The notes beneath the pieces are model-generated. The model made no database searches, had not been told where the DNA came from, and saw only the letters and a list, made by a program, of their open reading frames with translations. From positions 320,001-384,000 of the forward strand of contig CAVXRD010000004.1 in NCBI GenBank assembly GCA_963764165.1: a stretch of DNA of 64,000 bases, given 5' to 3'. Below, piece after piece: positions 7,672 to 26,527 of this stretch. A program made the position numbers and the translations under genes. Source of the stretch: an uncultured Verrucomicrobiae bacterium. GTDB taxonomy: Bacteria; Verrucomicrobiota; Verrucomicrobiia; Limisphaerales; Palsa-1400. Every line of letters begins with the position of its first letter. Within the stretch, counting starts at the first letter, position 1.

Positions 7672-7875
7672 ATGAAAAAACTATTGATCGCAACTTCCCT
7701 TGTCGCCCTGGTCGCAGTCGGCTGCAAAAATCCGGTCAGCGTCTCGGGCGATTACGCCACGCCGAAGCAAACCATTGCAGGCGGCGTCACGCTCACTCCG
7801 AACAGCGTCACTGTTGACGGCTCCGTCAGCAACGCCACGCAATCAGTCGGCGGTTCCGTCACCGTTGGTAAATAA
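7672..7875 (+). CDS. phage lipoprotein
   Basis: MKKLLIATSLVALVAVGC lipobox; AAGGA upstream. Confidence 0.8.
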   Translation: MKKLLIATSLVALVAVGCKNPVSVSGDYATPKQTIAGGVTLTPNSVTVDGSVSNATQSVGGSVTVGK

Positions 7876-7880
7876 CTCCC

Positions 7881-8240
7881 ATGCGTCGCGTCATTCTCAT
7901 CTCGGCGCTGGCCTTGTGCGGTGGCGGATGCTTCATGGCACCGCCCGGCCCGACCGTCAGCCATGAAGTCAAGACCTACGATCCTCAGACCGGCCATCTC
8001 GTGCGAGTCGAGCGATGGAAGGATAAATCCGGTCTGCGTGCGCTCTACGTTTTGATGGACCCGTCCGGCCAGAACGTGAACGCGTGGCATACGAATCAAG
8101 CCGCCCTCGGCGGTTGCTCCCATTTCAGCGCCGGTTCGGCTGGCGTTGTGGTTGACACAAATTCCGCCGCCATCATCGGCGAATCCGGGACTGCAGTCGG
8201 CAACGTCATCGGCGCGGCAGCCAAAACCGCCGTCAAATAA
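7881..8240 (+). CDS. phage lipoprotein
   Basis: MRRVILISALALCGGGC lipobox-like N-terminus. Confidence 0.75.
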   Translation: MRRVILISALALCGGGCFMAPPGPTVSHEVKTYDPQTGHLVRVERWKDKSGLRALYVLMDPSGQNVNAWHTNQAALGGCSHFSAGSAGVVVDTNSAAIIGESGTAVGNVIGAAAKTAVK

Positions 8241-8455
8241 TGGGCGACCGCGTCACACTCGGGGGTCAGGCCAAATCGTGGTTGAAATCGCTCTGCGAGA
8301 CCGGCCCGACGCGCTACTGCCTTGACGGCGTCAAAGCGACGCTGAAACGCCAGGGCTTGGCTGTCGAGGTCGACGGCGTGCTCTCCGCAACCGACAAAGG
8401 CCGCGCCGTCTTTCGCGCAATTCAGGGTGAACCGTCCGTTTTCCAATTCGTATGA
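8240..8455 (+). CDS. hypothetical protein, possibly winged helix
   Basis: TAATG overlap; LKRQGLAVEVDGVLSATDKG resembles a wHTH wing. Confidence 0.55.
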   Translation: MGDRVTLGGQAKSWLKSLCETGPTRYCLDGVKATLKRQGLAVEVDGVLSATDKGRAVFRAIQGEPSVFQFV

Positions 8456-9201
8456 TCGCACAAACTTCAAACGAATTCATCCCAGCCAATGCGCGGTTTC
8501 TTTGCCGATGCGCCGCGCAAACCTACGGCGACATCACAGCGCAAGACGGATGGACCGCAACCGTTCTTATTGACACCGGGCATTTGCTCGTTGCCGTCTT
8601 TCGTTGCGAGACGGATGTCGCAATTGCTGTGCGCGGAACGAAAAACCTGCCCAACGTGCTCGCCGATATGGACTGCATCCTGAAGCGCGATGGCGATTGG
8701 AAAGTCCACGAGGGATTTTCCAATTCCGTCGACCTCGTTGAGCAAGCCGTCGCAAACGTCATCCTCGCGGAAGCGTTTGGGCCGCGCCGAATTTGGCTCA
8801 CTGGCCACAGCCTTGGGGGAGCGATGGTTCACTTGCTCGCCGCCCGCTTCGTGCGGAAATATCGCCGCCAGCCGTTCGCGGGCATCTACACCTATGGTCA
8901 GCCTCGCGTCGGCAACGCCGCTTACCGCGACTGGTACAACTCAAGCGGGCTGCAATACTACACGTTTCGCGTCGTCAACCAGGACGACATTGTCCCGCGC
9001 CTCCCGTGGTTGCTGGGCCGCTACCGACACTCCGCGCACGAAATATATTTTACTGGCGTTCAAAAGTATTTCGTCGATTTGCCGATGCCGGTGAAACTGA
9101 TTTGCGACGTGCCGGGGCTCGTTCGCGAAGTCTGCAAAGACCGCGCCGAGTTCGTGGAAGATCATCACTCCGCGAGATACCTCCAAATTTTAGACGCATG
9201 A
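8452..9201 (+). CDS. class 3 lipase
   Basis: AVRGT, VHEGF, TGHSLGGA nucleophile elbow, YTYGQPRVGN, VVNQDDIVPRLP, terminal DHH. Confidence 0.93.
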   Translation: MIAQTSNEFIPANARFLCRCAAQTYGDITAQDGWTATVLIDTGHLLVAVFRCETDVAIAVRGTKNLPNVLADMDCILKRDGDWKVHEGFSNSVDLVEQAVANVILAEAFGPRRIWLTGHSLGGAMVHLLAARFVRKYRRQPFAGIYTYGQPRVGNAAYRDWYNSSGLQYYTFRVVNQDDIVPRLPWLLGRYRHSAHEIYFTGVQKYFVDLPMPVKLICDVPGLVREVCKDRAEFVEDHHSARYLQILDA

Positions 9202-9602
9202 ACTCACTCCAACTCGTCTCCGCATTTCTTTCGCCGATCTGCCTCGTGATTACGACAGTCCTGGCGTGGGTCGTCATATACCGCAAGCAGCGCACGGAAG
9301 TCAGCTTCACCGGCGAGCCGGTCGACAAAAAGGATTTCGAGAAAGCGGAGGCCGCGCACGCCGCTGTTCACGCGCAACTGTTCGCCAAAATCGGCGGCGC
9401 GGAGCGCGGTGTTGAAAACCGCATGGGCGAGCGCATGGCCCGCATTGAAACAAACACGGACAAAATTTGGGAGAAAATGGAGTCCGACAAAACCGAGATT
9501 TTGAAGACCGGCGAAGATCGTGCCACCAAAACCCACGACCGCATCAACGCTGTCCTCGAAGCCGTCGCCGAATTGCGCGGCCAGGTGAACGCCAAAAAAT
9601 AA
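9198..9602 (+). CDS. membrane-anchored coiled-coil protein (Mu gp25-like position)
   Basis: N-terminal TM (LVSAFLSPICLVITTVLAWVVIY) then a charged coiled coil; ATGA overlap. Confidence 0.7.
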   Translation: MNSLQLVSAFLSPICLVITTVLAWVVIYRKQRTEVSFTGEPVDKKDFEKAEAAHAAVHAQLFAKIGGAERGVENRMGERMARIETNTDKIWEKMESDKTEILKTGEDRATKTHDRINAVLEAVAELRGQVNAKK

Positions 9603-9841
9603 TGAACCTTGCTCCCACCATTCTGAGAATCCTGCGCAACATGAGCGGCGAACCGCTTTCGTTGCCAGCCATTGTTGACACCGTTCGCCTGGCGCGCCCC
9701 GGCCTGCCCGAATCGGATATTGTCAGCGCGGTCAAGTCCCTGGAAGCCGGCGGCTACATCGCCGGCACGGAAAATCGCCTACTGAAAACGTCCCTCTGGA
9801 CAATGACCTCCAAGGGCGACATCGCCGTCGCCCAACTGTGA
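9602..9841 (+). CDS. Mu gp26-like winged-helix protein
   Basis: ILRILRN...DIVSAVKSLEAGGYI...WTMTSKG; TAATG overlap; precedes the terminase genes. Confidence 0.7.
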   Translation: MNLAPTILRILRNMSGEPLSLPAIVDTVRLARPGLPESDIVSAVKSLEAGGYIAGTENRLLKTSLWTMTSKGDIAVAQL

Positions 9842-9845
9842 ATGA

Positions 9846-10532
9846 ATGAGCGCCAACAAAATAGATCGCGACCGCCTCGCTTCGATTCTCGAACGCTTCG
9901 GCGATTCGCTGGATTCATTCGACGCGCTGCGCCCAGACTCCTACGAGCAATCGCTGGCGGCATTTTCGCTGGATGCCTTGGAATCGTTCTACTCAATTTT
10001 GTTTGCCCCGTCGCAAACGCTGGTTCAGGCGGCCGCGCAATGCCCGACCTGGCCGCTCGGGGCGAAGCGGGAGCGCCAGCGCCCATCCACGGCCATCCTC
10101 AGCCAGGTCGGCGAGCGGATGCGGACGAAAGCAGCCCTCAAGCGCATCGCGCCGGTCGGGAAATTCTTGACAGAACTCCGCAGGGAATTGAAGGCCACTC
10201 CACTCGGCGACAATCAATCGATCTTGGACGGCGTCTGCGGCGCGGTCGGGCAGAAATTAATTGCCGACATCCGCGACGGAGCGGAAGTCGATTTGAAGCT
10301 CATCGACAAACTGCAGGCCCAGCGCGTCATCGAGCAAAACGAAAAACGGATCGCGCAGAACGATCAGAAAATCGCCAACGATGGCCGTCGCATCGCCGTG
10401 CTGGAAGCCAAGCTCGCGGATGTGCAGGAGCAGAAAAAGAAAATCGAAGCCGCGCTAGTGCAGGGCAAAACCAAGGGCGGACTTACTGCCGAATCTTTGG
10501 CGCAAATCGAAGAGGCGACAAGACTTCTCTGA
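9846..10532 (+). CDS. putative terminase small subunit (Mu gp27 position)
   Basis: Position before terL; C-terminal KGGLTAESLAQIEEATRLL resembles gp27-like ends. Confidence 0.65.
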   Translation: MSANKIDRDRLASILERFGDSLDSFDALRPDSYEQSLAAFSLDALESFYSILFAPSQTLVQAAAQCPTWPLGAKRERQRPSTAILSQVGERMRTKAALKRIAPVGKFLTELRRELKATPLGDNQSILDGVCGAVGQKLIADIRDGAEVDLKLIDKLQAQRVIEQNEKRIAQNDQKIANDGRRIAVLEAKLADVQEQKKKIEAALVQGKTKGGLTAESLAQIEEATRLL

Positions 10533-10534
10533 TC

Positions 10535-11887
10535 ATGGGCAAAGCCAAATGCATACCGAAGCGCGACACGCTGCTTCTCGAATACCAGGCCAAATGGGTC
10601 AAAGACCCGTCGCGCCTCAAGCTCGCCGAAAAATCGCGCCAGATTGGATGGACATGGGCCACCGCCTATCGCATCGCCTCACGCAAAGCCCTGGCCGACG
10701 CGAAGCTGGATGCCTGGATAAGTTCCCGCGACGATTTGCAGGCGCGTTTGTTCCTCGAAGATTGCAAGAGCTTCGCCTCGCTCCTGCAAATTGCGGCCAA
10801 GGATTTGGGCGAGCGCATCATCGATGAAAAGGGGAACACCGGCTACGTGATGCAATTTGCCAACGGACTGCGGGCGCACAGCATGTCCAGCAATCCTGAC
10901 GCGCAAGCGGGCAAGCGCGGCGACCGCGTGCTCGATGAATTTGCGCTGCATCCCGATCCGCGCAAGCTCTACAGCATCGCGCTTCCAGGCATCACATGGG
11001 GCGGGCAGATGGAAATTTTCTCAACGCATCGCGGCAGCGCAAATTACTTCAACGACCTTGTCACCGAGATCAAGCACAAGGGAAACCCCAAGCGTTTCAG
11101 CCTGCACACGGTGACGCTCCAGAACGCGCTTGAGCAGGGATTCCTTTGCAAGCTGCAATCCAAATTGCCGCCCGATGACGAGCGCCAGGAGATGGATGAA
11201 GCCGCGTATTTCGATTACACGCGAGCCACTTGCGCAGACGAAGAATCCTTCCTGCAGGAATTTTGCTGCCAGCCCGCCGACGACAACGCCGCGTTCCTCA
11301 CCTACGACATGATTTGCGGTTGCGAATACAAGCCGGGCGAAGCATGGGAGACGGAACTGAAATTGGCTGGCGAGCTTTTCGTCGGCGTCGACATCGGGCG
11401 CACAAAAGACCTCACGGCCATTTGGGTTCTGGAAAAAATGGCGGACATGCGTTTCACGCGCCGCCTCATCGTGCTGGAGAAAACGCCGTTCAGTGCCCAA
11501 GAGACCGCGCTCTACGAAATCCTCGATCTGCCAAACGTGCGCCGTTGCTGCATTGACCAGACCGGCATCGGTCGGCAGTTCGCCGAGCGGGCGCAAGAGA
11601 AGTTTGGCAAATACAAAGTCGAAGGCATCAGCTTCACCGGCACTGTCAAAGAGGAACTCGCCTATCCTGTCCGCGCCTCGTTCGAGGACAAAACCATTCG
11701 CGTTCCAAGCGATGGAAAAATCCGTTCCGATCTCCGCGCCATCGGCAAGGAAACAACTGCGAGCGGCAATGTCCGCTTCACCGCTGAACGCACCAAGGAT
11801 GGCCACGCCGACAGATTTTGGGCGCTCGCGCTCGCGATCCATGCGGGCAAAGCGCCAGCCTCGCAATTCGGGGCGGTGGTGATATGA
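10535..11887 (+). CDS. terL: terminase large subunit (Mu gp28-like)
   Basis: LLEYQAKW, EKSRQIGWTW, VLDEFALH, FSTHRG, VGVDIGR, IDQTGIG, GHADRFWALALA. Confidence 0.93.
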   Translation: MGKAKCIPKRDTLLLEYQAKWVKDPSRLKLAEKSRQIGWTWATAYRIASRKALADAKLDAWISSRDDLQARLFLEDCKSFASLLQIAAKDLGERIIDEKGNTGYVMQFANGLRAHSMSSNPDAQAGKRGDRVLDEFALHPDPRKLYSIALPGITWGGQMEIFSTHRGSANYFNDLVTEIKHKGNPKRFSLHTVTLQNALEQGFLCKLQSKLPPDDERQEMDEAAYFDYTRATCADEESFLQEFCCQPADDNAAFLTYDMICGCEYKPGEAWETELKLAGELFVGVDIGRTKDLTAIWVLEKMADMRFTRRLIVLEKTPFSAQETALYEILDLPNVRRCCIDQTGIGRQFAERAQEKFGKYKVEGISFTGTVKEELAYPVRASFEDKTIRVPSDGKIRSDLRAIGKETTASGNVRFTAERTKDGHADRFWALALAIHAGKAPASQFGAVVI

Positions 11888-12042
11888 CACTCCTTCCCCA
11901 TTCCATTTGCAATTTCCCGGCAGGCCGCCCATCTGCCGGGGGACGAGAATACGGTCAGGGTGCGGACCGCCATCCGGCGAACCGGATGGGTTATCATACA
12001 TCGCCCGGCCCGGTGTCGCATTCCGGCCGGAATCTCTTCAAG

Positions 12043-12068
12043 GTAGGGACGCCTCGCCGAGGCGTCCG
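12043..12068 (+). repeat. GTAG-type REP hairpin
   Basis: GTAGGGACGCCTCGCCGAGGCGTCCG, identical to 17481-17506. Confidence 0.9.
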
Positions 12069-12308
12069 AGGACTTCGCAAACCCGCAAGCTCAGAAATTG
12101 AAGAACGCTCTAAAATGCCCCAGGACGTTTTAGCGCCTCTCTCCACCTTGGTGCACGAAGAAAGGCCATTGAATCGGGCAGCCAGGCCATTGAGCGTGCC
12201 ACAGGAATCTTTGGGGGCCTCGTCAAAATTGGCTATTTTTGACCACTTCTGGAAGGGGTCAGGATTCGCCACTATCCAACGGGTTGTATCAGGGAGGCTC
12301 GGATCGCG

Positions 12309-14720
12309 ATGAAATGGCCTTGGTCAAAATCCGAATCCTCGACGGCATTGGTTAAGCAGGAAGCGCTCTCTGCGCCTGCCACCTTAACCTTTGAGGACTT
12401 CGCGCTAGGCAACGCGGCCCGCGCTGCATTGGACGATACCCGCTTCGGCAAGACCATCATTGCCGAGGTCAACGGCCAGCGGTGCGAGTTGAAGGTTATT
12501 CAGCGTGATTCGTCGTCGGTGAGCCAGGGCGTGCCCGCCTTCTGGTTTGCCCGCGCATTGGAACCCGGCCAGATGGCCAGCATGTGGCAGCCGTTCCGCG
12601 AATCCGTTTGGGTCCAGCGAGCGATCAAGATCATCAGCGGCCCGGTCGGCAGCGTCCCCCCTGATTTTTATCCGCGCAACGTCCAGGTAGGGACGTCTCG
12701 CCGAGACGTCCGCTCGCGGAGCGTGATTAAATCCTACCGCTCGTCATCTGGCCTTGCCGTCAAACGCTCCGCCGATGCCGCCATCGAAGTCCCGCAACTC
12801 TCCGATTTCCTGCGCGAGCCCGTGCGCGGCCTCAGCTACGCCGATTTCGTCGAAGCAACCATCGGCTGGCTCAAAATGGAGGAATGCTTCTGGCTGCTGT
12901 CCGATTCCACCTTGGTCCCGTTTCCCCAGGCCAAGTCGCGCAAGCCCGATCCCATCATCATTGCGCAACCCTACCGCATGCGCCACATCCTGGGCGACGA
13001 TGGCGAGCTTGCCGGGTGGACGTATCAGGACGTGCTTGGCAAGCAGTGGACTCTGCTGCCCGATCAGGTCATCCACATTCGAGGCTGGAATCCCTACCAC
13101 CAATTTCGCGGACTCGGCGAATATCCGTCCGCCCAAATCGCCGCCGAAGGCGATTGGCTGGCCGGAAAATTCTCGCGAAACCTGATGGGCAACAATGGCG
13201 ACACCGGCCCCTTCATCATCGCCAAGAACGGAATCCCCACCGACCCCCAGCGCGATCAAATCATCGCCGCCCTGCGCGAGAAGCGCCACGCCCAATTGCG
13301 CGGCGAATTCAAGCCGATGTTCTTGACAGGCGACATCGAAGTGCAAGACCCAAAAATCGGCAGCGTCGACGCCCCGTTCATTCAGCAGCGCATCGAAGCC
13401 CGCCACGAGATCGCGGCGGCGTTCGGCATCCCCATGTCGATGTTCGATTTGAAAGCCGCGTATTCCATCGGCGCGGACTCGGACATTTTCTGGCTCATCT
13501 GTTTCACCTGCATCCCGACCGGCGCGAAACTCGCGGGCGGACTGGAGAGGCTCGCGAAAAAACTGTTCGGCCTCGATCTCGAAGTGTTGCTCGATTGGGA
13601 TCAGCACCCGGTCATTCAAGCCGCCAGGCGCGCCCGCTTGAAAGACGCGGACGGATTGTTCAGCAAGGGAATGCCCATGCGCCAGATCAGCGACTACCTT
13701 GACTTGTCGCTGCCCGAATACGAAGGCGACGACATCGGTTATTTGCCAATCAATCTCACGCCCGCCGTTCCCACCGAGCCGGACGACACCACGCAAACCC
13801 CGCTCAAGCCCGACGACTTTTCGGAAGTGCCAACCGAGTCAGGAAATCCCGACGCACCCGAGCCAGTCCAGGAAATGTTGTCGGCTTTGCGCGGATGTTC
13901 CCATCCGTCGCATTCTTCCCATGCCTCCCATCGCAGCCCGAAAAACAAGCAACTCTGGGAAAACCACATGCGCCGCCGCAGTGCCGCGACAAAGCTCCTG
14001 CAATCAAAGGCCAGCAAAGTCTTCAACGATTTTCGCGTCAAGGCGCTGAAGAAGCTCGATGCGACCTACGGGCGGAAATCCATTGAAGGCGTCACCTCCC
14101 GCTCCTTGCTCGATGTCATCTTCAGCAAAGACGACTTCGGCTCCGCGCTCACCGAGGCGCTCCGCAATCCGATCCACGCGGCGCTTGAAAGCAGCGTCGC
14201 CGATCTCATGTCCGAAATCGGACGCGCCGACGATCCGTGGAAAATGCCGCCAGCGGACGCGATCAAGTTCATCCGCAGTCGCGAAAACAAAATCAGCGGC
14301 GTCAGCGAGACGGCCTTCAGCCAGTTGAAAACCGCCCTTGAAAGCGCGGTGAAAGCCGGAAAAAACATCGATGAAATCGCCGGTGACATCAAAGGCGTCT
14401 TCAACGGATTGAGCCGCTACGAAGCCCGCAAGATCGCGATGACCGAAGTCTGCGCACTCGACGGTTTCGCCAGGCACGAGGGAATGAAGGGCGCGGGCAT
14501 CGAATTGAAATCGTGGCTGTCAAGTCACGGCCCCAACGTCCGCCCGGCGCACGAAGCCGCCGAGGCGCGTTACGAAGCGCACCCCATTCCGCTCGAAGAC
14601 CCGTTCGTGGTCGGCGGCGAAAACTTGATGTATCCCGGCGATCCCGCAGGCAGCGCCGCGAACGTCATCAACTGCCAATGCATCCAACTCGCCTGCACAA
14701 ACAAAGGAGAACAAGAATGA
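12309..14720 (+). CDS. HK97-type portal protein fused to a Mu-F/gp7-like head morphogenesis domain
   Basis: WVQRAIKII, DQVIHIRGWNPYHQFRGLG, HEIAAAFGIP (portal); C-terminal ARKIAMTE...KSWLSSHGPNVRPAH...FVVGGENLMYPGDP...NVINCQC. Confidence 0.9.
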   Translation: MKWPWSKSESSTALVKQEALSAPATLTFEDFALGNAARAALDDTRFGKTIIAEVNGQRCELKVIQRDSSSVSQGVPAFWFARALEPGQMASMWQPFRESVWVQRAIKIISGPVGSVPPDFYPRNVQVGTSRRDVRSRSVIKSYRSSSGLAVKRSADAAIEVPQLSDFLREPVRGLSYADFVEATIGWLKMEECFWLLSDSTLVPFPQAKSRKPDPIIIAQPYRMRHILGDDGELAGWTYQDVLGKQWTLLPDQVIHIRGWNPYHQFRGLGEYPSAQIAAEGDWLAGKFSRNLMGNNGDTGPFIIAKNGIPTDPQRDQIIAALREKRHAQLRGEFKPMFLTGDIEVQDPKIGSVDAPFIQQRIEARHEIAAAFGIPMSMFDLKAAYSIGADSDIFWLICFTCIPTGAKLAGGLERLAKKLFGLDLEVLLDWDQHPVIQAARRARLKDADGLFSKGMPMRQISDYLDLSLPEYEGDDIGYLPINLTPAVPTEPDDTTQTPLKPDDFSEVPTESGNPDAPEPVQEMLSALRGCSHPSHSSHASHRSPKNKQLWENHMRRRSAATKLLQSKASKVFNDFRVKALKKLDATYGRKSIEGVTSRSLLDVIFSKDDFGSALTEALRNPIHAALESSVADLMSEIGRADDPWKMPPADAIKFIRSRENKISGVSETAFSQLKTALESAVKAGKNIDEIAGDIKGVFNGLSRYEARKIAMTEVCALDGFARHEGMKGAGIELKSWLSSHGPNVRPAHEAAEARYEAHPIPLEDPFVVGGENLMYPGDPAGSAANVINCQCIQLACTNKGEQE
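12687..12712 (+). repeat. GTAG-type REP hairpin inside the portal gene
   Basis: GTAG-GGACGTCTCG-C-CGAGACGTCC-G, read in frame as VGTSRRDVR. Confidence 0.85.
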
Positions 14721-14908: not shown

Positions 14909-14923
14909 AATGGAAAAACTTGA

Positions 14924-14999
14924 ACAGAAGCACACAAAGATCACGAAGCAAAGAAACCGGAACTTCCATTCCCCCTTTGTGTCCTTTGCGACCTTCTGT
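14924..14999. repeat. ACAGAAG...CTTCTGT palindromic repeat
   Basis: Imperfect inverted arms; related copies at 18699, 22705, 2962 (half) and 47821. Confidence 0.85.
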
Positions 15000-15008
15000 G
15001 AATAAATA

Positions 15009-15996: not shown

Positions 15997-17478
15997 ATGA
16001 ACTCGATCAAAAAATTCAAACTGAAACATCTGCTCATGTGCTTCGGCGCGGTCTTCGCGCTCCTGGCCGTGTTCGGAATGTTCTTCGCCAATCCCACCGC
16101 GCACATCGCCCCTGGCGGAATGCTCGCCGCCTCCGCTGGCGGACTGGTCCTCGAAAAAGAAGCCGGGGACAAAGTCGTCGAAGGTGTCAAATTCCTCACC
16201 GCCGAAAACGCGAAGTTAAAATCCGACTACCAAAAAGTGCTCGACGATTATTCGCGCACTGACAAGGAAGTGAAGAAAGCCGCCGAAGATATCCAGAAGC
16301 TGATGACGACTTGCAACGATCAGGCACAACTGATCGCGAGCCTGAAAAAGCTCGAAGCGACCGTGCTCCGCAACGCCAAGAGCAGCTTCGGTGATCCCAT
16401 CCAGCGCGCCCTCGGCAACGAGGAAACCCGCGCCTACTTCCACGCCATCGGCAAATCCGTCGCAGCGAAAATGACCAACAGCCGCCTTGATCCCGCCTTC
16501 GAGAAAATCATCGGCGACGGCAACGCCGCCTTCAAATCGCTGACCGGCGTCGATGCCGGACTCGGCCAGGCCACCGTGCCGCAAGCGACGTTCAATGAAA
16601 TCTACGACACGCTGCTGAATTACGGACAGTGGAACACACTCGGCGTCATGCGCGTCGGCATGCGCACCACCGTCATTCCCGTGGCCAGCGCCCGCCCGAT
16701 CTTCTACTGGATCGGCTCCGGCACAGGCGGCACAGGCGAAGGTTCGGCCATCACCGCAGGCGCCTTCACCGGATCGTCTGTCACGCTCGTCATTCAAACG
16801 CTCGCAGCCTACATCACGATTTCGCGCGAGCTGCTCGCGGACTCCACCGTTGATCTCGCGCCGTATGTCATTCGCGAAATGACGCAAGCTTGTTACCAGG
16901 GGCTTGACACGGCCGCCTTCATCGCCAATGGCGCGGCTGACCAGACCAACGCCGGATACATCGGCATCTTCAACGCCGCCAGCGCCAATGTGAACATGGC
17001 CGCCACCACGGCCCAGGGAAACACAACCGTCGCCGGCACCCAGTTGGATGATTGGGAAAATGTTCTCAACACGGTCAACCCCGAAGTGCTCAATCGCGGC
17101 CCCAAATGGTGGATGCATCCGCAGATGCTGGCCAAGGCGATTTTGGTTCGCGACAAAAACGGACGCCCCATCTTCCAAACATGGCTTGAGCGCCCCGACA
17201 CCCGCGCCCTGGGCAATATCCTCGGCTACCCGGTCATCCCGACCAACATCGCGCCGAGCACGGACGGCCCCGGCAACGTCATCGCCGCCTTCGGCGATCC
17301 TCAAGGCCAGGCCATCGGCATCCGCGAGGATTTGGAGATGGCGACCAGCGACGACATCAACTTCGCTCAGAACATGCGGGCCTTCCGCACGCTGCTCCGA
17401 GCAGGCGTGAAAATGAAAACAACCGCAGGCAGCACATCATTGGTGCCATTCGCGGCAATGACCTTGTCGCCTAACTAA
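15997..17478 (+). CDS. HK97-family major capsid protein with a hydrophobic N-terminal extension
   Basis: Coiled-coil delta domain, then ATVPQATFNEI, YITISRELLADSTVDL, WWMHP, RDKNGRPIF, ILGYPV, AFGD. Confidence 0.93.
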   Translation: MNSIKKFKLKHLLMCFGAVFALLAVFGMFFANPTAHIAPGGMLAASAGGLVLEKEAGDKVVEGVKFLTAENAKLKSDYQKVLDDYSRTDKEVKKAAEDIQKLMTTCNDQAQLIASLKKLEATVLRNAKSSFGDPIQRALGNEETRAYFHAIGKSVAAKMTNSRLDPAFEKIIGDGNAAFKSLTGVDAGLGQATVPQATFNEIYDTLLNYGQWNTLGVMRVGMRTTVIPVASARPIFYWIGSGTGGTGEGSAITAGAFTGSSVTLVIQTLAAYITISRELLADSTVDLAPYVIREMTQACYQGLDTAAFIANGAADQTNAGYIGIFNAASANVNMAATTAQGNTTVAGTQLDDWENVLNTVNPEVLNRGPKWWMHPQMLAKAILVRDKNGRPIFQTWLERPDTRALGNILGYPVIPTNIAPSTDGPGNVIAAFGDPQGQAIGIREDLEMATSDDINFAQNMRAFRTLLRAGVKMKTTAGSTSLVPFAAMTLSPN

Positions 17479-17480
17479 AG

Positions 17481-17506
17481 GTAGGGACGCCTCGCCGAGG
17501 CGTCCG
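17481..17506 (+). repeat. GTAG-type REP hairpin just after the capsid stop
   Basis: Identical to 12043-12068. Confidence 0.9.
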
Positions 17507-17541
17507 CACCCAACGCGCACTACCCGAAAGGAAAAATAAAT

Positions 17542-18411
17542 ATGTCAAATACAAATTCACCCGGCAGCCCATTCAAAGAGGAAGCCGGCACCAAGACGCC
17601 CGACTCTGAAAAAGTCGTCACCGTCAAAGTCGTCACGCCCGTATTCCTCGACGGCCAGCAATACGTCAAAGACATCACGACCAAAGTCAGCCTCAAGCAA
17701 TGGCGCGCGTTAAGTCGTCATCTCGAATGGGTTGACGGTCCGAAAGAACACGATCCCGCGAACAAAACATTCGCGGAAAAAGCCGCGAAGCGATTGGACG
17801 CCCGCGAGCAAGCGCTAGCCAAAGCCGCCGCCCTCGCCGTCCTGTTCTTCATGCTGCTGTTCACGCCGGCCGCCAAAGCAGGCCCCGGCACATTCAGCCC
17901 ATTGCCGATCCCTCCCATGATCGTCCTCCTGCCGACTAACGGCCTGGTGACGGCGACCAATGGGATCGTCGGCACTGGCACAAACATGAATCAGGTCTCC
18001 AACACCTGCGTCGGTCTTTCCACCGCGCAGACCAATGTATTCGTGCCTCAGACCAATTCCTTCGGCCAGATCACCAACCTTATCAGCGTCGAGAAATTCG
18101 ATGAAATTTGGCTGGTGCTCAAAGGTCAGCAAGGAACGGCGGTCGGCGGCTCGGGCTTCACGAATATTTGGGAATTCTGGCAGACCGATGGCACGATCAC
18201 CGGTCTCGACAGCAATCACCCCATATTCTCGCTCACGTTCAACGTGCCGAGCACATGCACCAACGGCTGCCTGATCACCAACATCAGCCGGAATTTGCTT
18301 GGCTCGACAGGCTTGATTGTTCCGGGCCGCATCTACGATGCGACCGGGACGAACGCCTGCACAAACCTCAGCTTGACGGCCTACGTCAAACCCATTCGTT
18401 CAGGAAACTGA
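17542..18411 (+). CDS. capsid-adjacent protein with an internal TM/signal segment and a Thr-Asn-rich C-domain
   Basis: AAALAVLFFMLLFTPAAKA near residues 95-113; AAAGGA upstream. Confidence 0.75.
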   Translation: MSNTNSPGSPFKEEAGTKTPDSEKVVTVKVVTPVFLDGQQYVKDITTKVSLKQWRALSRHLEWVDGPKEHDPANKTFAEKAAKRLDAREQALAKAAALAVLFFMLLFTPAAKAGPGTFSPLPIPPMIVLLPTNGLVTATNGIVGTGTNMNQVSNTCVGLSTAQTNVFVPQTNSFGQITNLISVEKFDEIWLVLKGQQGTAVGGSGFTNIWEFWQTDGTITGLDSNHPIFSLTFNVPSTCTNGCLITNISRNLLGSTGLIVPGRIYDATGTNACTNLSLTAYVKPIRSGN

Positions 18412-18784: not shown

Positions 18785-19444
18785 ATGAACTGCGGCCTCT
18801 CCAATCTCGCCACGCTCAAGGCCAACATCCTGCCGGTCAGCATGCAATCGCAGACCAGCTACGATCTGAAGCTCGCCGCCATTGGGCTGACCGTCGCCGG
18901 TTTGTTCAACCAATTTTGCAACCGCCAATTCGCCTGGGGAACCAACCTGGTCGACATCTTCACCGGCGACCGCCCGCAATGGTATGTCAGCGCCTATCCC
19001 ATCGCGACCAACAGCGACGCGAATCAATCCCCGCAGATTGCCGCTGTCAACATGAGATATTTTCTGACCGATAATTGGACGGACATTATCGGCGAGCCGC
19101 TGCAAGTCGACGCCAGCAAGGGAAAAATCCATTTCGGCTACACGCTTGGACGCGCTCCGCTGCAGGTGCAAGTCATCTACAACGGCGGCTACTGGTTCCA
19201 AACCGGCGAAGGCTCGCAAGCCGATCCCAACGTGAATCAGCCAGCGGGATCGACCGCCTTGCCGCCAGAAATTCAAGGCGCGTTCCTCCTGCAATGCGGC
19301 GAAATCTTCCGCAAAATGGATCCGTTGGGACAGGGCATCGCCGCCCGTCTCACCGAGGCCCAACTCAATGTCACCAGCGATCTCGCGCTGATCCCCCTCG
19401 TGAAACAGCTTTTGCAAAGCTACGTCCGCTTCCAAATGACATGA
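18785..19444 (+). CDS. head-tail connector (gp6-like)
   Basis: LATLKANI, FNQFCNRQF, VQVIYNGGY, LPPEIQGAFL, VKQLLQSYVR; position after the capsid gene. Confidence 0.75.
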   Translation: MNCGLSNLATLKANILPVSMQSQTSYDLKLAAIGLTVAGLFNQFCNRQFAWGTNLVDIFTGDRPQWYVSAYPIATNSDANQSPQIAAVNMRYFLTDNWTDIIGEPLQVDASKGKIHFGYTLGRAPLQVQVIYNGGYWFQTGEGSQADPNVNQPAGSTALPPEIQGAFLLQCGEIFRKMDPLGQGIAARLTEAQLNVTSDLALIPLVKQLLQSYVRFQMT

Positions 19445-19971
19445 GCGAATACGTTTCCATTTCCCCACAAGCCAGGGCGATTCTTGACAACCTCAAGAAC
19501 GCCCCCGCCAAGTGCCTTGAGCCGATGGCCAAAGCGATGGATCGCGAAAATGTTCTGACCGTCTCGCACATCCAGCGCGATTACCTCAGTTTCTCGCGCA
19601 GCGGCCCGAGCAACCCGGATGGGCTTCGTGTGCAAAGCGGATCGCTCCGACGCAGCCTGCGGGCCAGCAAGGCCACTCTCGGCCCCACCGGATTGACCAG
19701 CGGCATCGGCGGCAACGTCACTTCACGCGGCGTTAATTATCTCGCCGTGCATGAATTCGGCGCGGAGATTCCCGAACACACTATCACCGCGACGAATGCG
19801 CGTGCGCTGCATTTTTTCGTCGGCGGAAAGGAGATTTTCCGAAAGTCCGTGAAGATTCCCGCCATCACGCTTCCCGCTCGCGGCATGATTGCGCGAGGCA
19901 TTCAAGATCGCCTGGCCAATTACGGCAAAGCCATGAGCGACGCCGTGGTGAAAACATTTGGAGGCAACTGA
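19441..19971 (+). CDS. virion morphogenesis/tail completion protein (Mu G or HK97 gp10-like)
   Basis: LRVQSGSLRRSL, NYLAVHEFG, ITLPAR motifs; ATGA overlap. Confidence 0.8.
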   Translation: MSEYVSISPQARAILDNLKNAPAKCLEPMAKAMDRENVLTVSHIQRDYLSFSRSGPSNPDGLRVQSGSLRRSLRASKATLGPTGLTSGIGGNVTSRGVNYLAVHEFGAEIPEHTITATNARALHFFVGGKEIFRKSVKIPAITLPARGMIARGIQDRLANYGKAMSDAVVKTFGGN

Positions 19972-19972
19972 C

Positions 19973-20704
19973 GTGAACGCGCTTCTTCAACTGCAAGACG
20001 ACTTGCTCGACTGCCTCAATAGCGAAAGTTATTTTGACACCATTGCTGTTGCCAAGCTGCGCGACCTGGTCATCTCGCAGGAAGTCGCCGCCAGGCTCCC
20101 GCACCTCGCGGGCGCGGGCGGAAAATTAGGCTGCGGAATTATTGTCAACATGCCGGAAATTCTCGCCATCTCGCCCAACGCCACCGGGCAAAGCGAACTG
20201 ATTGTCACGCTCGATGTGGTGGAAAATCCCGAGCTTAATTTCGATCCGCTCACCGGGACACTGCTGACCTGCGAGGAAGTCTCGATGCAAGTCCGCGCCG
20301 TTCTCGATGGCATGGCACTCCAATCTTCCACCGGCTGGCAGAATTTGCACACGGATGAAAACGAACATGTCATCCAGCCGATCCCCAACATCACGAAAAT
20401 GTTCCCCGGCTGCGCGGGCTACCGCGTCACGCTGAAACTCGATTGGGCCGAAGCCTGGCAAGCGAAAGTCGCGCTCCCGATCATTTCGGGCACGCACAGC
20501 GCAGTGACGATCACCTGCGCGACGGGCGGCGCTTCGATTTACTACACCTTGGACGGCTCGTTTCCCGGCGTAACGGATGCCGAGGGAGCCGCCGTTCTTT
20601 ACGCCGCGCCGTTCGCGGCCGCAGTCGGCCAAACCGTCCGCGCCAAAGCATACATGGCGGGCAGCATCGGCAGCGATGTCCCGCTCTTAACCATCACGTC
20701 ATAG
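19973..20704 (+). CDS. putative tail terminator with a C-terminal FN3-associated/chitobiase-type domain
   Basis: GTG start after GGAGG; VTITCATGGASIYYTLDGSFP...YAAPF...VRAKAY. Confidence 0.65.
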   Translation: MNALLQLQDDLLDCLNSESYFDTIAVAKLRDLVISQEVAARLPHLAGAGGKLGCGIIVNMPEILAISPNATGQSELIVTLDVVENPELNFDPLTGTLLTCEEVSMQVRAVLDGMALQSSTGWQNLHTDENEHVIQPIPNITKMFPGCAGYRVTLKLDWAEAWQAKVALPIISGTHSAVTITCATGGASIYYTLDGSFPGVTDAEGAAVLYAAPFAAAVGQTVRAKAYMAGSIGSDVPLLTITS

Positions 20705-20713
20705 GCAAAACAC

Positions 20714-21703
20714 ATGAGCAATCCACGCCAGAACTCAATCAGGTCAGCCGGATATTTCACATGGGATTCCGCCACCGTCGCGTCAACGACATCGAACGTC
20801 ATTCAATTTGACGGCGATGCCTCGATCAAGGTTGTCAAGACAACGGACATCCTCAAGACGGCCCTGCAGGGAAACATCGACGAGACGAGCCGCGATCTCG
20901 CCGTGCAATTGACCGGGACGCCGCTTGTCTTCCCCAGCGGGCAATCCAGTTTGCTCGCCTGGATTTTTCCTTGGGCCAACTCTGTGCCCGTCCCCGGCAC
21001 AAGCCTCTTTGGATCGTCCGACGTGCCGGGTAATTTCCTCGCCAGCAATGGCGATTTGTGGAGCCTCTACAATTGCGCCGTGACAAAAATGCCGACGCTC
21101 ACCCTTGACATCGGCAAGCCCATCATCGGCCCGCTCGAAATCGTCGCCCTCATCCGCAACGGCTACGATCCTGAGACCGCCTACGCCTACTACAAAATCC
21201 AAACCGGACAGAGCTACACCAAGCCAAAGCTCGGCCAGCAAAGCGGCGATTCGCTTGGGCGCCAGCGCTACTACGGAAATTGGGCGGCCGGCAACACGGC
21301 GACGGGCAACACGACCTTCACCAATTTTGAAGCGCAGGCAGGCTGGGAGATTTCCTACGAATTGGAAATCGAGCCATTTCTTCAGCAAGGGCGCACCCGC
21401 GATTACACCCTCAGCAGTTTCCGGGCGATGGCCAAATGCATTCCCATCGGCCCGAGCATGACGGACATCGACACCTGCCAGGGCAACACCGCCATTCACG
21501 GCGCATCCCTCAGCAGCGGTGTTTGCGGCGATTTGATCATCACCGGGCAAAATATTGGCACGTTCACCATCAAGAACGCTGTGCTGAAAACGGCGGGCTA
21601 TATGTTCGGCGGCAAGCCCATCCGCAACGGCGAAATTGGATTCGTCGGAACCTTCAACCTCAGCGCCTCCACCTACACCGGCGGTCTCGGTGTGGCCGCA
21701 TAA
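20714..21703 (+). CDS. putative major tail (tube) protein
   Basis: 329 aa, beta-rich composition, position after the neck genes; no diagnostic motif. Confidence 0.5.
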   Translation: MSNPRQNSIRSAGYFTWDSATVASTTSNVIQFDGDASIKVVKTTDILKTALQGNIDETSRDLAVQLTGTPLVFPSGQSSLLAWIFPWANSVPVPGTSLFGSSDVPGNFLASNGDLWSLYNCAVTKMPTLTLDIGKPIIGPLEIVALIRNGYDPETAYAYYKIQTGQSYTKPKLGQQSGDSLGRQRYYGNWAAGNTATGNTTFTNFEAQAGWEISYELEIEPFLQQGRTRDYTLSSFRAMAKCIPIGPSMTDIDTCQGNTAIHGASLSSGVCGDLIITGQNIGTFTIKNAVLKTAGYMFGGKPIRNGEIGFVGTFNLSASTYTGGLGVAA

Positions 21704-21714
21704 CCGAAACGACT

Positions 21715-21936
21715 ATGACACTCACACAAGCGGCAGTCACCAAGATCGGCGTGGACCACATGGTTTCCGCCAACAACATGCTCAACTCCTTGAGCGCGGC
21801 CGCCAAACAAATCGCCGATCACAACGCCGACAAAAACAACAAGCCCATCGACGCCGCGCCGGTCGCAGCATCGCTGGCCGCTGTCAACACAATCATCGGC
21901 CAGATGGCCGCGCACGTCCAAACATCCGTCAAATAG
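21715..21936 (+). CDS. hypothetical protein
   Basis: MTLTQAAVTKIG..., fills the gap. Confidence 0.65.
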   Translation: MTLTQAAVTKIGVDHMVSANNMLNSLSAAAKQIADHNADKNNKPIDAAPVAASLAAVNTIIGQMAAHVQTSVK

Positions 21937-21947
21937 AAAGAAACACC

Positions 21948-22241
21948 ATGCCAGAAAAAACAATCCAAGACCTCATCACCGACGCGGAAACGCTGTTCAA
22001 CGACATCGACGCTTTCCACGCGGGAAACGACTTTGCCAAAGCGAGTCCGTTCCTGCGCGAAGCGCGGGCCAAGACCAGCATCGCGCTCGGGCAATTGAAC
22101 AATCACGCGCAATCCGAAATCACTGCAGCGAAGAAAGCCGCCGCAGCCGCCGAGAAAAAAGCAGCGGACGAAGCCGCCAAAGCCGACGCCGATCTCGCCG
22201 CGAAAACCTCCAACCCTGCGCCAGTCGCGCCGAAGCCCTAG
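21948..22241 (+). CDS. hypothetical protein, Ala/Lys-rich C-terminus
   Basis: MPEKTIQDLI...AAKKAAAAAEKKAADEAAK. Confidence 0.7.
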   Translation: MPEKTIQDLITDAETLFNDIDAFHAGNDFAKASPFLREARAKTSIALGQLNNHAQSEITAAKKAAAAAEKKAADEAAKADADLAAKTSNPAPVAPKP

Positions 22242-22250
22242 CGAAGGCGG

Positions 22251-22679
22251 ATGCGCAAAGTCACCCTCACCCCAAGCGCCGGAGGAATGCCTGTCGTCAT
22301 CTATGATGAGACGGCATCGCCCTCCGACGCTTGTGTCGAGGGGTTCAAGCCGAAGTCGATGCGCAAATTCCAAACCACGGAATTATTTCGCGGCCCATCT
22401 GTCTTCATGGCGGACCGCTTCAACCAGTGGGTGCAATGGAGCTTCACCGTCGATCACCGTTTCTCCACCTCATTGGCCGCGCAAGATTTCGCTGGCAACC
22501 GGCCTTACATCGCCAGGGCCGGAGAACTCACAATCTACAATTACGCCACGACCGGCGCATTCATCCGCTATTACAAAACCGCCTACCTCTCCGAGTGCGA
22601 GCCAGTCAAAGACGCGGGCTTGCGCCAGACTTTCAAATACACTTTGCAATTCAACTCCGTTTACTCGATGACCGCATGA
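22251..22679 (+). CDS. putative distal tail protein
   Basis: 142-aa ORF in the tail module; function by position only. Confidence 0.55.
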   Translation: MRKVTLTPSAGGMPVVIYDETASPSDACVEGFKPKSMRKFQTTELFRGPSVFMADRFNQWVQWSFTVDHRFSTSLAAQDFAGNRPYIARAGELTIYNYATTGAFIRYYKTAYLSECEPVKDAGLRQTFKYTLQFNSVYSMTA

Positions 22680-25600
22680 CAACAAAAAAAGAAATTTCCC
22701 TTCAACAGAAGCTCACAAAGGACGCAAAGGAAAATCAGATCGGCCGGGCAAAAATCTTTTCCCCCCTTCGTGTCCTTTGCGTGCTTCTGTTAATGTGTTT
22801 TTCCCTCCGTGTTTCCGCCCAGACCGATGGCACCTACATCCGCATCAGCGGTGATTCCGCCGTGCGCTATCCCGGCTCTGCAACCGACAGCAACACGCTC
22901 GAAGGCATCCAGTTTGTTCGCGGTGATTTCGTCGCCTTCGATTTCGCGCTGTATGACCGTGGAAATTACCGCTCGAACATATCCATGTTTGCGACGATCA
23001 ACCTCCAACTGTTCGCCGCGCAAAACACGACGAACGCGCCGATCCTCGCGCAATCCATCACCAATGGAACCGCGTTCTGGAATGGATTTTGCCCCAGCAA
23101 CAATTGGGTCAGCAACACGCCAGGCTTCACGAATTACAACGTGGAATTTCAATTCACCGACGCGCAAACCAGCTTCTCGCTCAACAATCAGGCCGCGCAA
23201 AGTTTCTGGCTCCGCATCTACGCCGTGACAACGGACAGCATCCCGCGCACGGTCACTTACCTCGAATGCCCGGTGACAGTTTACGACGGCCCGATCAGCC
23301 CGTTTTACACCGCGCTCAATTGGCCCATGCAGGTTTACCTAGACGGCTCGGATTTCTTAAGCCAGCAATCGACCGCCGCGCAAAATTTCGCGGCACTCAC
23401 CAATGCGCTCGTCACCGGAGGATTCAGCGGCGGCGGTGGCGGTGGTGGCGGAAATAATTTTACACCCAACTTCGACACCAATGCCGGAAAGGTAGACTTG
23501 GCCACGACGATCACGCCGACGAATGTAGCCTCGCACACGATTACCAATGGCGCGTTTTCAGTGGACGCCTTTGGGAACGTGATCGCAAACAGCCTCTCCG
23601 CTCCGGCACTGGTTATCAGCGGGAGCGGCTCGGACGCGGTCAACTATAGCGGAGGAATTCAGCAAAACACGCGTGACGCAAACTACTTCAACGGCACTGA
23701 CTGGCAGGACAACGGCCACGGCAGCCTGAGTGTCAGCAACGTGGCGGCGGCGGGAAGCATCACAGCCCAGACCAATGTCACGGTAGTGCATGGGCAATTC
23801 AATGGCAGCGGCGCGGGCCTGACTTCGGTGCCAACGAACTTCCCAGGCATCAACGCGACAAACGGAATCACGGCGGCGGGTGGCACAACGATTCTCGCCC
23901 CGACTGGCGACGTGACGGTCGGAGCCAACTTGCGCCTCGGCAGTGGGAATGTGGAATTCCCGCTCAGTGGCGGCCTTGCAGACAGCACCGTGTCACCGTA
24001 TTCCGTGGGCGGCTCCGTCACCGCCCCGCAATTCAACGCCACAAATCAATCCGTCAACGGCTCTGGATTCACCGGCGACGGCAGCGGCCTAACGAACATA
24101 CCTTCATCAGCCATTGTCGGCGGCGGCGGCTCCGGCATTGCGACCAGTGGCGGCATTGGAACAAACACATACTTGACCAACGCCACGTCCAGTGGCGAGC
24201 GCGCCACCAATTTGACCATAGTTAGCGGTAACATTTCCGGCGCCACAAATTTGCCTCCGTCAGGCTTGAGCGGCGGCAGCGCTTCCGCAGGGCAAGTGCT
24301 CGAATGGAATGGCACGGCTTGGGTTCCTACGTCCATCGCTAGCTATGTCAACATTACGAGTGAAGGCGGCGTCGGCGATGGCGTCACTGACAACACGGCG
24401 GCGGTTTCAAACGCGATGGCGGCAGCAGGAAACGGCGGGGCGATTTATTTTCCGCGCGGCAAATACAAAGTCGCTGGCAACATCAACGTCACCAATGCGA
24501 ATCTAACGATTCTCGGCGATGGTGCGGGATCGTGGGCGCTAGGTCAGGCGGACACATTTGTCTCAGCCATCATCTGGTCTAATCTCGCGACCAATTGTTT
24601 CAACGCGCAGGGAAGCTATCTCACCTTTCAGAATATCGCAGGCTTTTGGACCAACACAGCCGCGCCGACATCGGGCGCATTCGTGTGCGCCACGACAAAT
24701 GCCGACCAGGTCAACGGGGCGGTCAGCGTCAATTGGAACAACGTTTTGCTTGACGGTGGCTACCGTTGCGTGGATTACCAGGCCGGGCAGGGCTGGCAGG
24801 CGTTCAACCTGTCGTGGATTCGATGGTGGCAGGACGGAATCCGCATCAACAACTATGCCAATGTGGACGTCGGCGGTTGGAGCATTATCAACTCAGGCTG
24901 GGAGGCGCTGGGCAACGGGCACGCAGCCAACTGGAGCGCAGGCAGCCACATCTCCCGCAGCGCGATCCGCTGGGAGGGGTCAGGCGGCGGACAAATCCTC
25001 AACTCAGGCGGCGGCGCGTTTAACTGGGGCAGTTATGGAGACACTGGAGGATACACAAACGCCATCGATGTGCAGCCGCAATTTCAATCAGGGGCCGGAT
25101 CGGACACCAGCGGTTTATTTGTCAACAACTGCATTATCGACAACTGGACAGGCAACGCGATTTATACCCACTCTGGCACGGGCGCATTTGTCAGCATTCG
25201 CATTATCGCCGTGCAAGCCGAGAGCTTCGCCAATCCCGGCACGCCGATTTCTTTGACACAGGGCATCGGCAACGGCGGCCTGATCGACGGGCTGTCCATT
25301 GTCTCGGGAGGCATCAACCCAGGTGGCTATCCGGTTTATTTGCAAAACATGACCGGGGTGGATGTCGGCTACGTTGTGTCCGGGACAAGTATTTCAGGAG
25401 CCATTTTGAACAGCGGATCTACGGCGGTAACCGTGCTTCCCGATGGCACTGGATTTTACGATCCCGATCAAGGGATGCCCCAAATTCGCGAAGGCGGCTA
25501 CTTCGTTCAGTCGCAAACCAACGGCAGTTGGACGCAGTTTGCGGGCGGCTATTACACCGCTGCCAGCGGCGGCGGACTTTACTATTCCGCCAATGGCCCG

Positions 25601-26527
25601 GCCATGAGCGAGGACGTTTACAACAATTATCTCGGCGAGCCGATCACGTTTTCACTTTCTTTTTACCCGTCCAACGTGGCGGGCACCGTTTTGGGTTTCG
25701 CCTCGCAGACAAACATGGCCGAGTTCCGCAGCAAAACAGCGATGGGCTGGCTGAACATGACGAAATACGGCGGCCCGGCCGGTGCGGTTCTATTTGCCAC
25801 AAATACAGGAAATGTTGGTATTAACACCACCACTCCCGCAGCGGCGCTGACAGTCAACGGCTCGGCTGTCGTCAGTAACAATTTGCAAGTCGTCGGCGCG
25901 ATCACCGGAAGCATCAACGGCTCCAATATTACCGGAGTGCTTCAGCCGTCTCAAATGGCTAATACGAACACTTCCGGCTATCCGGCTTTATTCAGCGCAA
26001 GCACGGCTCCAAACAACGCCAACAGCCTGACGAATCTTGGCAGCCAAGCGTTCACAAATGTCTTCGCGAACACGATCACCAATACAAATGGCGTCACATG
26101 GCTCTATCCCAACAACGGTCAATTCGGCGCAACCAATTGGTGGGGAGCGAATCATTATTCCTACGATTGCACAAACACACTCCCGGCTAACACACTTGGA
26201 ACGTGGTCAATTTTCACAAATTTTAGTTCATCAGCCTATACTTATCGTTTGACGGTGAGTTTTTATGCGCATTGCATCACCAATCCTCTTGGCAGTTTCA
26301 TGCGCTCTCAGTCTGATGTTGTCGTGACTAATAATGGTACTGCCAATGGTTGCGGAGCCGCGAGCGTAACCACATTTGTGGCCAATGCGACGCTTGGCAT
26401 GTCTGGATCTGCGCTTACTCTCAACACAACGGCGGGAGGTCAAACAGGTGGTGAAATCTTATACAACCAAGGATCTGGAACTACTAACACAATTTTGGCG
26501 TGGGCGCATGTGGAGGTAAACCCCTGA
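22676..26527 (+). CDS. tailspike/receptor-binding protein with a pectate-lyase-like beta-helix and an N-terminal signal peptide
   Basis: ATGA overlap; LRVLCVLLLMCFSLRVSA-QTD; fibre-like repeats (FNGSGAGLTSVP, FTGDGSGLTNIP, GQVLEWNGTAWVP, GNVGINTTTPAAALTVNG); YVNITSEGGVGDGVTDNTAAV...IYFPRGKY. Confidence 0.85.
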   Translation: MTTKKEISLQQKLTKDAKENQIGRAKIFSPLRVLCVLLLMCFSLRVSAQTDGTYIRISGDSAVRYPGSATDSNTLEGIQFVRGDFVAFDFALYDRGNYRSNISMFATINLQLFAAQNTTNAPILAQSITNGTAFWNGFCPSNNWVSNTPGFTNYNVEFQFTDAQTSFSLNNQAAQSFWLRIYAVTTDSIPRTVTYLECPVTVYDGPISPFYTALNWPMQVYLDGSDFLSQQSTAAQNFAALTNALVTGGFSGGGGGGGGNNFTPNFDTNAGKVDLATTITPTNVASHTITNGAFSVDAFGNVIANSLSAPALVISGSGSDAVNYSGGIQQNTRDANYFNGTDWQDNGHGSLSVSNVAAAGSITAQTNVTVVHGQFNGSGAGLTSVPTNFPGINATNGITAAGGTTILAPTGDVTVGANLRLGSGNVEFPLSGGLADSTVSPYSVGGSVTAPQFNATNQSVNGSGFTGDGSGLTNIPSSAIVGGGGSGIATSGGIGTNTYLTNATSSGERATNLTIVSGNISGATNLPPSGLSGGSASAGQVLEWNGTAWVPTSIASYVNITSEGGVGDGVTDNTAAVSNAMAAAGNGGAIYFPRGKYKVAGNINVTNANLTILGDGAGSWALGQADTFVSAIIWSNLATNCFNAQGSYLTFQNIAGFWTNTAAPTSGAFVCATTNADQVNGAVSVNWNNVLLDGGYRCVDYQAGQGWQAFNLSWIRWWQDGIRINNYANVDVGGWSIINSGWEALGNGHAANWSAGSHISRSAIRWEGSGGGQILNSGGGAFNWGSYGDTGGYTNAIDVQPQFQSGAGSDTSGLFVNNCIIDNWTGNAIYTHSGTGAFVSIRIIAVQAESFANPGTPISLTQGIGNGGLIDGLSIVSGGINPGGYPVYLQNMTGVDVGYVVSGTSISGAILNSGSTAVTVLPDGTGFYDPDQGMPQIREGGYFVQSQTNGSWTQFAGGYYTAASGGGLYYSANGPAMSEDVYNNYLGEPITFSLSFYPSNVAGTVLGFASQTNMAEFRSKTAMGWLNMTKYGGPAGAVLFATNTGNVGINTTTPAAALTVNGSAVVSNNLQVVGAITGSINGSNITGVLQPSQMANTNTSGYPALFSASTAPNNANSLTNLGSQAFTNVFANTITNTNGVTWLYPNNGQFGATNWWGANHYSYDCTNTLPANTLGTWSIFTNFSSSAYTYRLTVSFYAHCITNPLGSFMRSQSDVVVTNNGTANGCGAASVTTFVANATLGMSGSALTLNTTAGGQTGGEILYNQGSGTTNTILAWAHVEVNP
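22705..22790. repeat. ACAGAAG...CTTCTGT palindromic repeat inside the tailspike 5' end
   Basis: Arms encode QKLTKDAK and LRVLCVLL. Confidence 0.88.

Follow-up and report, generated by a model that had tools for sequence, protein, structure and literature searches.

Predicted export signals on the post-capsid protein and tail spikes of a Mu-like prophage family in Limisphaerales

Tailed-phage particles are assumed to be assembled entirely in the cytoplasm. Here we describe a Mu-like prophage in a 64,000-nucleotide stretch (the window) of contig CAVXRD010000004.1 from an uncultured Verrucomicrobiae bacterium which, together with dozens of uncultured relatives, bears export-type signals on the protein encoded right after the capsid gene (the post-capsid protein) and on its tail spikes. 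The window contains most of the prophage, with transposase, MuB-like ATPase, Gam, terminase large subunit (TerL), portal-MuF, protease and HK97-type capsid genes. It resembles Pseudomonas phage B3 and the Mu type in its MuA, MuB and Gam, in a TerL 61% identical to that of B3, and in the order of its lysis slot, transmembrane (TM) protein, small gene, terminase small subunit (TerS), TerL and portal. Unlike those phages, it has an HK97-type capsid with a leader, a lipase in a lysis slot where no endolysin was found, and signals on the post-capsid and spike genes. The Bbp16 fold is a single jelly roll, and the cement protein of BPP-1 (PF21190) resembles the post-capsid protein in being a single jelly roll encoded beside the capsid gene; here, however, a signal and, in most members, a charged N-domain precede the jelly roll, and the hidden Markov model (HMM) for Bbp16 does not match.

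Other described systems share the involvement of membranes or lipids. Prophages of Porphyromonas gingivalis, the proposed Nixviridae, have capsids with predicted signal peptides and phage proteins that follow the Q-rule; the relevant passages of PMC10367356 read these signals as leaders cleaved by the prohead protease and as host-surface modifiers, and propose no export of decoration proteins or spikes. Both T4 prohead assembly and the coat leaders of filamentous phages involve the membrane, and the f1 leader is cut by a host peptidase, but according to PMC3185693, T4 tethers its proheads through a portal chaperone and not the capsid N-terminus, and filamentous phages have no tail and leave by secretion. 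Mycobacteriophage LysB and lysis-cassette lipases place an alpha/beta-type lipid esterase in the lysis cassette, as does our locus. In the parts of PMC12173070 that treat them, LysB-type enzymes accompany an endolysin, whereas here a class-3 lipase alternates with a second hydrolase or a permuted papain-like amidase and no endolysin was found. Finally, the Mu gp25 releasin (DUF2730), as presented in sections of PMC9239132, has a single N-terminal TM segment with N-out/C-in topology and a cytoplasmic domain, and is encoded just upstream of the packaging genes. The corresponding protein here shares these features but lacks a DUF2730 match among the families listed, and the DUF2730 phages of those sections have an endolysin nearby (one by synteny only), whereas none was found here. 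In a literature search made mostly without subscription papers, we found no description of the export of tailed-phage decoration proteins or spikes. What the window adds is a transposable long-tail family, a precursor with an internal signal, a threonine-asparagine (Thr-Asn) control, an optional putative capsid hairpin and a lipase cassette with no recognised endolysin.

The proteins with hydrophobic segments are encoded by three genes of the head and tail region, the last of which overlaps a repeat:

15997..17478, + strand: HK97-type major capsid protein (PF05065, E 5e-32), with a ~52-residue basic-hydrophobic leader before a coiled-coil delta domain
17542..18411, + strand: post-capsid protein, with a ~95-aa charged N-domain, an internal signal and a Thr-Asn-rich jelly-roll domain
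22676..26527, + strand: tail spike, 1283 aa, with a signal (VSA|Q at 48), a BppU-like N-domain, a fibre region and the start of a pectate-lyase-like beta-helix
22704..22791, no strand: palindromic repeat; its right arm codes for LRVLCVLL in the hydrophobic region of the spike

Capsid-centred searches yielded 50 loci including the window, with distinct capsid C-termini and a few near-copies, and all follow one order: signal or lipoprotein genes, hydrolase, TM-coiled-coil gene, small gene, TerS, TerL, portal, protease, capsid, post-capsid gene, neck and tube genes, and spike slot. The named relatives are genomes of Verrucomicrobia subdivision 3 (Limisphaerales), which suggests that the host falls in this group too, and no close cultured relative of the window capsid was found. 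Throughout, signals were called by hydropathy and (-3,-1) rules, which are heuristic and not SignalP or DeepTMHMM.

After the capsid gene, 39 of 41 loci encode a signal-like segment with a cleavage motif, and both misses are cut by contig ends. Such a segment also precedes the jelly-roll domain in 54 of 55 database homologues (a set that overlaps the loci), at the N-terminus in 19 and internally in 35, and an ATG lies within 20 codons upstream of the hydrophobic region (h-region) in only 3 of 33 long forms. In the window protein the hydrophobic segment spans residues 91-109 (KD19 2.01, AKA at its end), with the h-region at 96-107 and a predicted cut at AKA|G, position 113. The +1 residue is thus Gly and not Gln, while Gln occupies this position in 27 of 35 post-capsid proteins, against 111 of 478 host signal-bearing proteins, and in 40 of the 54 database homologues with a signal. 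The host encodes a glutaminyl cyclase (PF05096, E 5e-97) with a lipobox. Under the Q-rule (Bochtler 2018), Gln at +1 goes with a periplasm-facing glutaminyl cyclase; Verrucomicrobia are not mentioned in the passages of PMC5837995 on the rule. The prevalent Gln and the lipobox-bearing host cyclase fit it, although the window protein itself carries Gly.

In the tail-spike slot, all 20 loci that reach it have at least one protein with an N-terminal h-region. N-terminal hydrophobic cores were found in 30 of 34 tail-slot proteins (those of at least 170 aa, with proteins above 13% Glu+Lys dropped as tape-measure-like) compared with 8 of 329 core phage proteins, and every counted tail-slot protein is signal-bearing in 16 of the 20 loci. 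A stricter first rule, applied with the tape-measure genes still in the set, called 11 of 36 and missed clear cases. Because the spikes are mostly unrelated in sequence across loci, the signal is a property of the slot. Read from the ATG at 22676, the window spike has hydrophobic residues 26-44 (KD19 1.93) ending in VSA|Q; the protein matches PF12708 (E 1e-11), and its N-domain has an Atlas match to BppU_N at 0.88, which is a lead only. With their basic n-regions, h-regions and small (-3,-1) residues, both the post-capsid family and the tail spikes are predicted by these rules to be substrates of the Sec pathway and signal peptidase I (SPase I).

Some features of the window spike would suit a reading of the signals as artefacts, produced by start calling or by in-frame translation of palindromic repeats. 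The repeat overlapped by its h-region is present as 83 arms across the genome (including 7 training copies; none in 1 Mb of shuffled sequence), and an ATG stands at codon 39. However, many homologues have plain MKK-type signals, an internal signal cannot come from start calling, composition switches exactly at the signal, and one host gene has the same repeat-built signal, ending in VQA|Q. We consider an artefact very improbable. As a separate observation, pyrimidine-rich arms of palindromic repeats encode signal-peptide hydrophobic cores (LRVLCVLL, LCVLCYLL) at 22704-22791 of the window and at G000:C4:478626, and the signal regions of loci L044, L038 and L100 contain repeat-like wording when compared by eye.

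The composition of the proteins provides a second line of evidence for export. No dipeptide is more enriched than Thr-Asn in the 478 host signal-bearing proteins (observed/expected ratio, O/E, 2.16), and Asn-Thr has an O/E of 0.79 in host proteins with signal-like N-termini. Per 100 aa, Thr-Asn occurs 1.15 times in the host signal-bearing set versus 0.27 times in 1849 cytoplasmic-like host proteins. The mature parts of post-capsid proteins reach 4.84 and those of tail-slot (spike) proteins 3.11; post-capsid N-domains (0.30), capsid (0.53), tube (0.32) and lipase (0.18) are low. The break falls at the signal. For the window the values are 4.15 for the whole post-capsid protein and 2.73 for the spike, and 2.7 is reached by 0.4% of the cytoplasmic-like host proteins. 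Thr and Asn are generally favoured in beta-rich fibres, but an O/E of ~3 remains after allowing for composition. The enrichment is likely to be an independent mark of export for the mature parts of both proteins, and Thr-Asn may serve as the acceptor site of a hitherto undescribed modification outside the cytoplasm. N-glycosylation of the STT3/PglB type is not supported: the 97% complete host genome gave no STT3 match (PF02516), and N-x-S/T sequons are not enriched (O/E 0.95-1.08). The host genome has 14 PMT_2-type matches.

The mature domain of the post-capsid protein has a single jelly-roll fold and may be decoration- or cement-like. Its nearest Atlas clusters are viral, and in one at 0.94 Bbp16 cement makes up 11% of the members; the post-capsid protein gave no HMM match to PF21190, and Bbp16 is not listed in the fold searches. 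Of 301 genomes of the order, 17 contain the family, with one copy in the host, and it adjoins the capsid gene in the three relatives for which both positions are known.

The third hydrophobic segment, at residues 12-30 of the capsid protein (KD19 2.55), behaves differently. All three segments reported in the earlier note were found, but this leader is present in 54 and absent from 59 of 113 full-length capsid homologues. Among uncut loci it occurs in 22 of 42, and the other 20 lack it even in the whole stop-to-stop frame. On a tree of the capsid body its state changes 27 times, 19 of them forced by well-supported branches, versus 37.9 for shuffled labels, counts in which some database starts are possibly miscalled. 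Where present, the leader is constrained as protein, with fewer nonsynonymous than synonymous differences per site (pN<pS) in each of the 24 pairs of non-identical sequences shown, a comparison that is uncorrected and whose pairs are not independent. A second hydrophobic segment follows in 48 of 54 leaders, and the acid-free span has a median of 44.5 aa. This second segment, and a capsid body with Thr-Asn at the cytoplasmic level, argue against a Sec/SPase I signal. The leader probably acts as an inner-membrane hairpin anchor that is optional and is removed with the delta domain while the capsid body stays in the cytoplasm. The capsid tethering proposed earlier is supported in part: the leader looks like an anchor but is dispensable. 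Separately, short leaders of the form MKRIL..D..G in capsid homologues P0043, P0057, P0084 and P0091 correspond to the end portion of some long leaders; a loose pattern of this type, found in 24 of 59 short and 8 of 54 long leaders, hints at a shared cleavage motif.

The earlier note had also described the contents of the lysis slot accurately:

7672..7875, + strand: small lipoprotein, 67 aa, lipobox AVGC, no Pfam family, phrog_33816 (function unknown) at E 0.005
7881..8240, + strand: lipoprotein, 119 aa, lipobox GGC, with a Gly/Ala-rich C-terminal segment
8452..9201, + strand: class-3 lipase without a signal (PF01764, E 4e-28; triad S120-D179-H238)
9198..9602, + strand: single-TM coiled-coil protein, N-out/C-in, in the position of Mu gp25 (releasin)

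We surveyed this slot in 29 loci, each with 2.5 kb or more ahead of TerS, including two near-copy pairs. A hydrolase is present in 27: a class-3 lipase in 21, another alpha/beta-hydrolase-like protein in 3 (called by motif, with no Pfam match) and a permuted papain-like amidase in 3 (one by a Pfam C92 match, two by family or motif), leaving 2 with none. Lipobox-like genes occur in 17 of the 29 slots, and the 7881..8240 lipoprotein may have a spanin-like role. The assignment of 8452..9201 as a class-3 lipase is based on a PF01764 match above cut-off and on the Ser-Asp-His triad, whose S120, D179 and H238 are invariant in 19 aligned copies; none of the 21 lipases has a signal. TM-coiled-coil proteins are more positive after the TM segment than before it in 23 of 24 cases, and none of 23 members matches DUF2730 among the 25 of 52 families listed. 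Between the gp25-like gene and TerS, some relatives carry a stand-alone response-regulator receiver gene (L041/L107:2314-2688, L044:3404-3856).

No endolysin family was matched by the 47 prophage open reading frames (ORFs; 42 in the window, 5 to its left), in agreement with the earlier note, although an unrecognised family is possible; the only "lysis" row for the window ORFs is the lipase itself against phrog_102 (E 0.0056). Endolysin matches were likewise absent from 108 of 136 unassigned proteins of five related 36-39 kb records searched against PHROGs, and from 69 lysis-slot and tail proteins of relatives searched against Pfam. The host has peptidoglycan genes, including penicillin-binding proteins, Mur ligases and MraY-family genes. 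Because the slot of locus L052 holds a Pam3-type holin and the same lipase lies beside a GH108 endolysin in the unrelated phage L155, the lipase slot is best read as a lysis cassette, by position and neighbours.

These findings bear on the idea of one obligatory envelope-coupled pathway, in which leader-tethered proheads assemble at a membrane that the lipase remodels for assembly or non-lytic exit. The leader is constrained and hairpin-like, no endolysin was found, and T4 proheads assemble on the membrane (a statement within PMC3185693). However, 59 of 113 homologues lack the leader, the tree forces at least 19 changes in its state, and the lipase does not track it, occurring with the leader in 12 loci and without it in 9; the holin of L052 and the GH108 neighbour in L155 also speak for lysis. 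We judge such a pathway quite unlikely, and the earlier proposal of one coupled system in which the lipase takes part in assembly is not supported.

Instead, we lean modestly towards a virion whose construction is split across two compartments. With export-type signals on the post-capsid protein and tail spikes, maturation of these outer parts is likely to take place outside the cytoplasm. The cytoplasm would be the site where capsid, portal, neck and tail tube are produced, whereas the jelly-roll protein and spikes would be exported, cut by SPase I, and join the particle only after the inner membrane is breached. Cleavage of long-form post-capsid proteins would leave the charged N-domain anchored on the cytoplasmic face, and the capsid hairpin, where present, would be lost together with the delta domain. 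A lysis cassette is probably formed by the lipase, the lipoproteins and the gp25-like protein. Its targets would be lipids of the envelope or the tethers that lipoproteins provide, and either host enzymes or a phage protein that escaped recognition would deal with the peptidoglycan. The export of both proteins suggested in the earlier note thus gains from conservation, the cleavage motif, Gln at +1 with a glutaminyl cyclase and the Thr-Asn signature. Some caveats apply. About half of close capsid homologues lack the leader, and two points count against the window spike itself: its h-region starts within the right arm of a repeat, and L059 has a homologue of its N-domain that carries no signal. 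The presence of the exported proteins in virions is only predicted.

The last point also favours the view that the signal-bearing proteins are exported but are late or lysogenic surface or periplasmic proteins derived from virion folds, acting in receptor masking, as adhesins or as vesicle cargo. Passages of PMC10367356 read the Q-rule proteins of Porphyromonas prophages in this way, and the lysis slot, too, has many signal-bearing proteins of no known family. Yet the genes keep to fixed places even where the sequences are unrelated, one directly behind the capsid gene and the other behind the distal-tail slot; with all counted tail-slot proteins signal-bearing in 16 of 20 loci, the tail would be left without an obvious receptor-binding protein; and the spike N-domain has its BppU-like lead. 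We regard a non-virion role as unlikely. A fuller version of the two-compartment reading is speculative to a similar degree: the post-capsid precursor would span the inner membrane, proheads would be docked by its N-domain on the cytoplasmic side, together with the capsid hairpin where one exists, and signal peptidase would free the decoration protein and spikes. These would receive a host pyroglutamate cap and a modification at Thr-Asn sites, and particles would be completed with a host-like coat as the lipase-led, endolysin-free cassette opens the envelope.

The remainder of the element is that of a Mu-like transposable phage, with a transposase, a MuB-like ATPase and TG...CA ends:

12..2594, + strand: C-terminal part of the transposase (the gene begins left of the window; phrog_310, E 1e-4) and MuB-like transposition ATPase (phrog_296, E 3e-29)
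9602..11887, + strand: small conserved gene, TerS and B3-like TerL (61% to Pseudomonas phage B3)
12309..15972, + strand: portal fused to MuF, small gene and prohead protease, by profile matches
18785..22679, + strand: neck and tail genes without signals (adaptor, Neck1, terminator, tube, distal-tail slot)
26795..31875, + strand: conserved 819-aa tail-tip gene, two small genes and a tape-measure-like protein (508 aa), by synteny
31942..31978, no strand: inverted repeats of the right end, matching the left end at G000:C4:316563-316606

Placed by inverted end repeats, the element spans ~G000:C4:316597-351961 (~35.4 kb) and starts 3.4 kb left of the window. Its TG...CA ends have inverted binding sites, TGTGCAAAGG at G000:C4:316597 and CCTTTGCACA ending at window position 31961. 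No 5-bp target-site duplication was found at the element ends, where the flanks differ at TG/CA, and the outer repeats may mark the true ends. For TerS, an L107 homologue matches phrog_426, and within 18785..22679 HMMs name Neck1 only (phrog_26/222/5, via homologues of 19441), the others being named by position. The tape-measure family has an L062 member matching phrog_9483 (E 4e-4); its gene here (30349-31875) comes last, 3' of the tail-tip gene, and precedes that gene in relatives. Also after the tail-tip gene, 29220-30005 encodes a Cys-rich (5%), Thr/Pro-rich protein with no signal and no matched family. A second family of short palindromic repeats (AGGTAGGGACG...) occurs at 2870-2903, 12041-12074, 12685-12718 and 17479-17512, with one copy in frame within the portal gene. 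In other prophages of related genomes (L010, L012, L013, L014) the protease and capsid are fused in one ORF of ~620-660 codons. By eye, small cold-shock-like ORFs follow the capsid region in the head-tail region of L030, L103 and L100, and in L100 the ORF is fused to a 947-aa tail-slot protein.

This phage family raises the question of how a host with peptidoglycan genes is lysed by a lipase without a recognisable endolysin, and of what the Thr-Asn enrichment of exported proteins marks in this host group. If the two-compartment reading is true, decoration and receptor-binding proteins would be exported, would fold and be modified in the periplasm, and would be added at release. The membrane could then enforce the order of assembly, and virions could carry host-type modifications.

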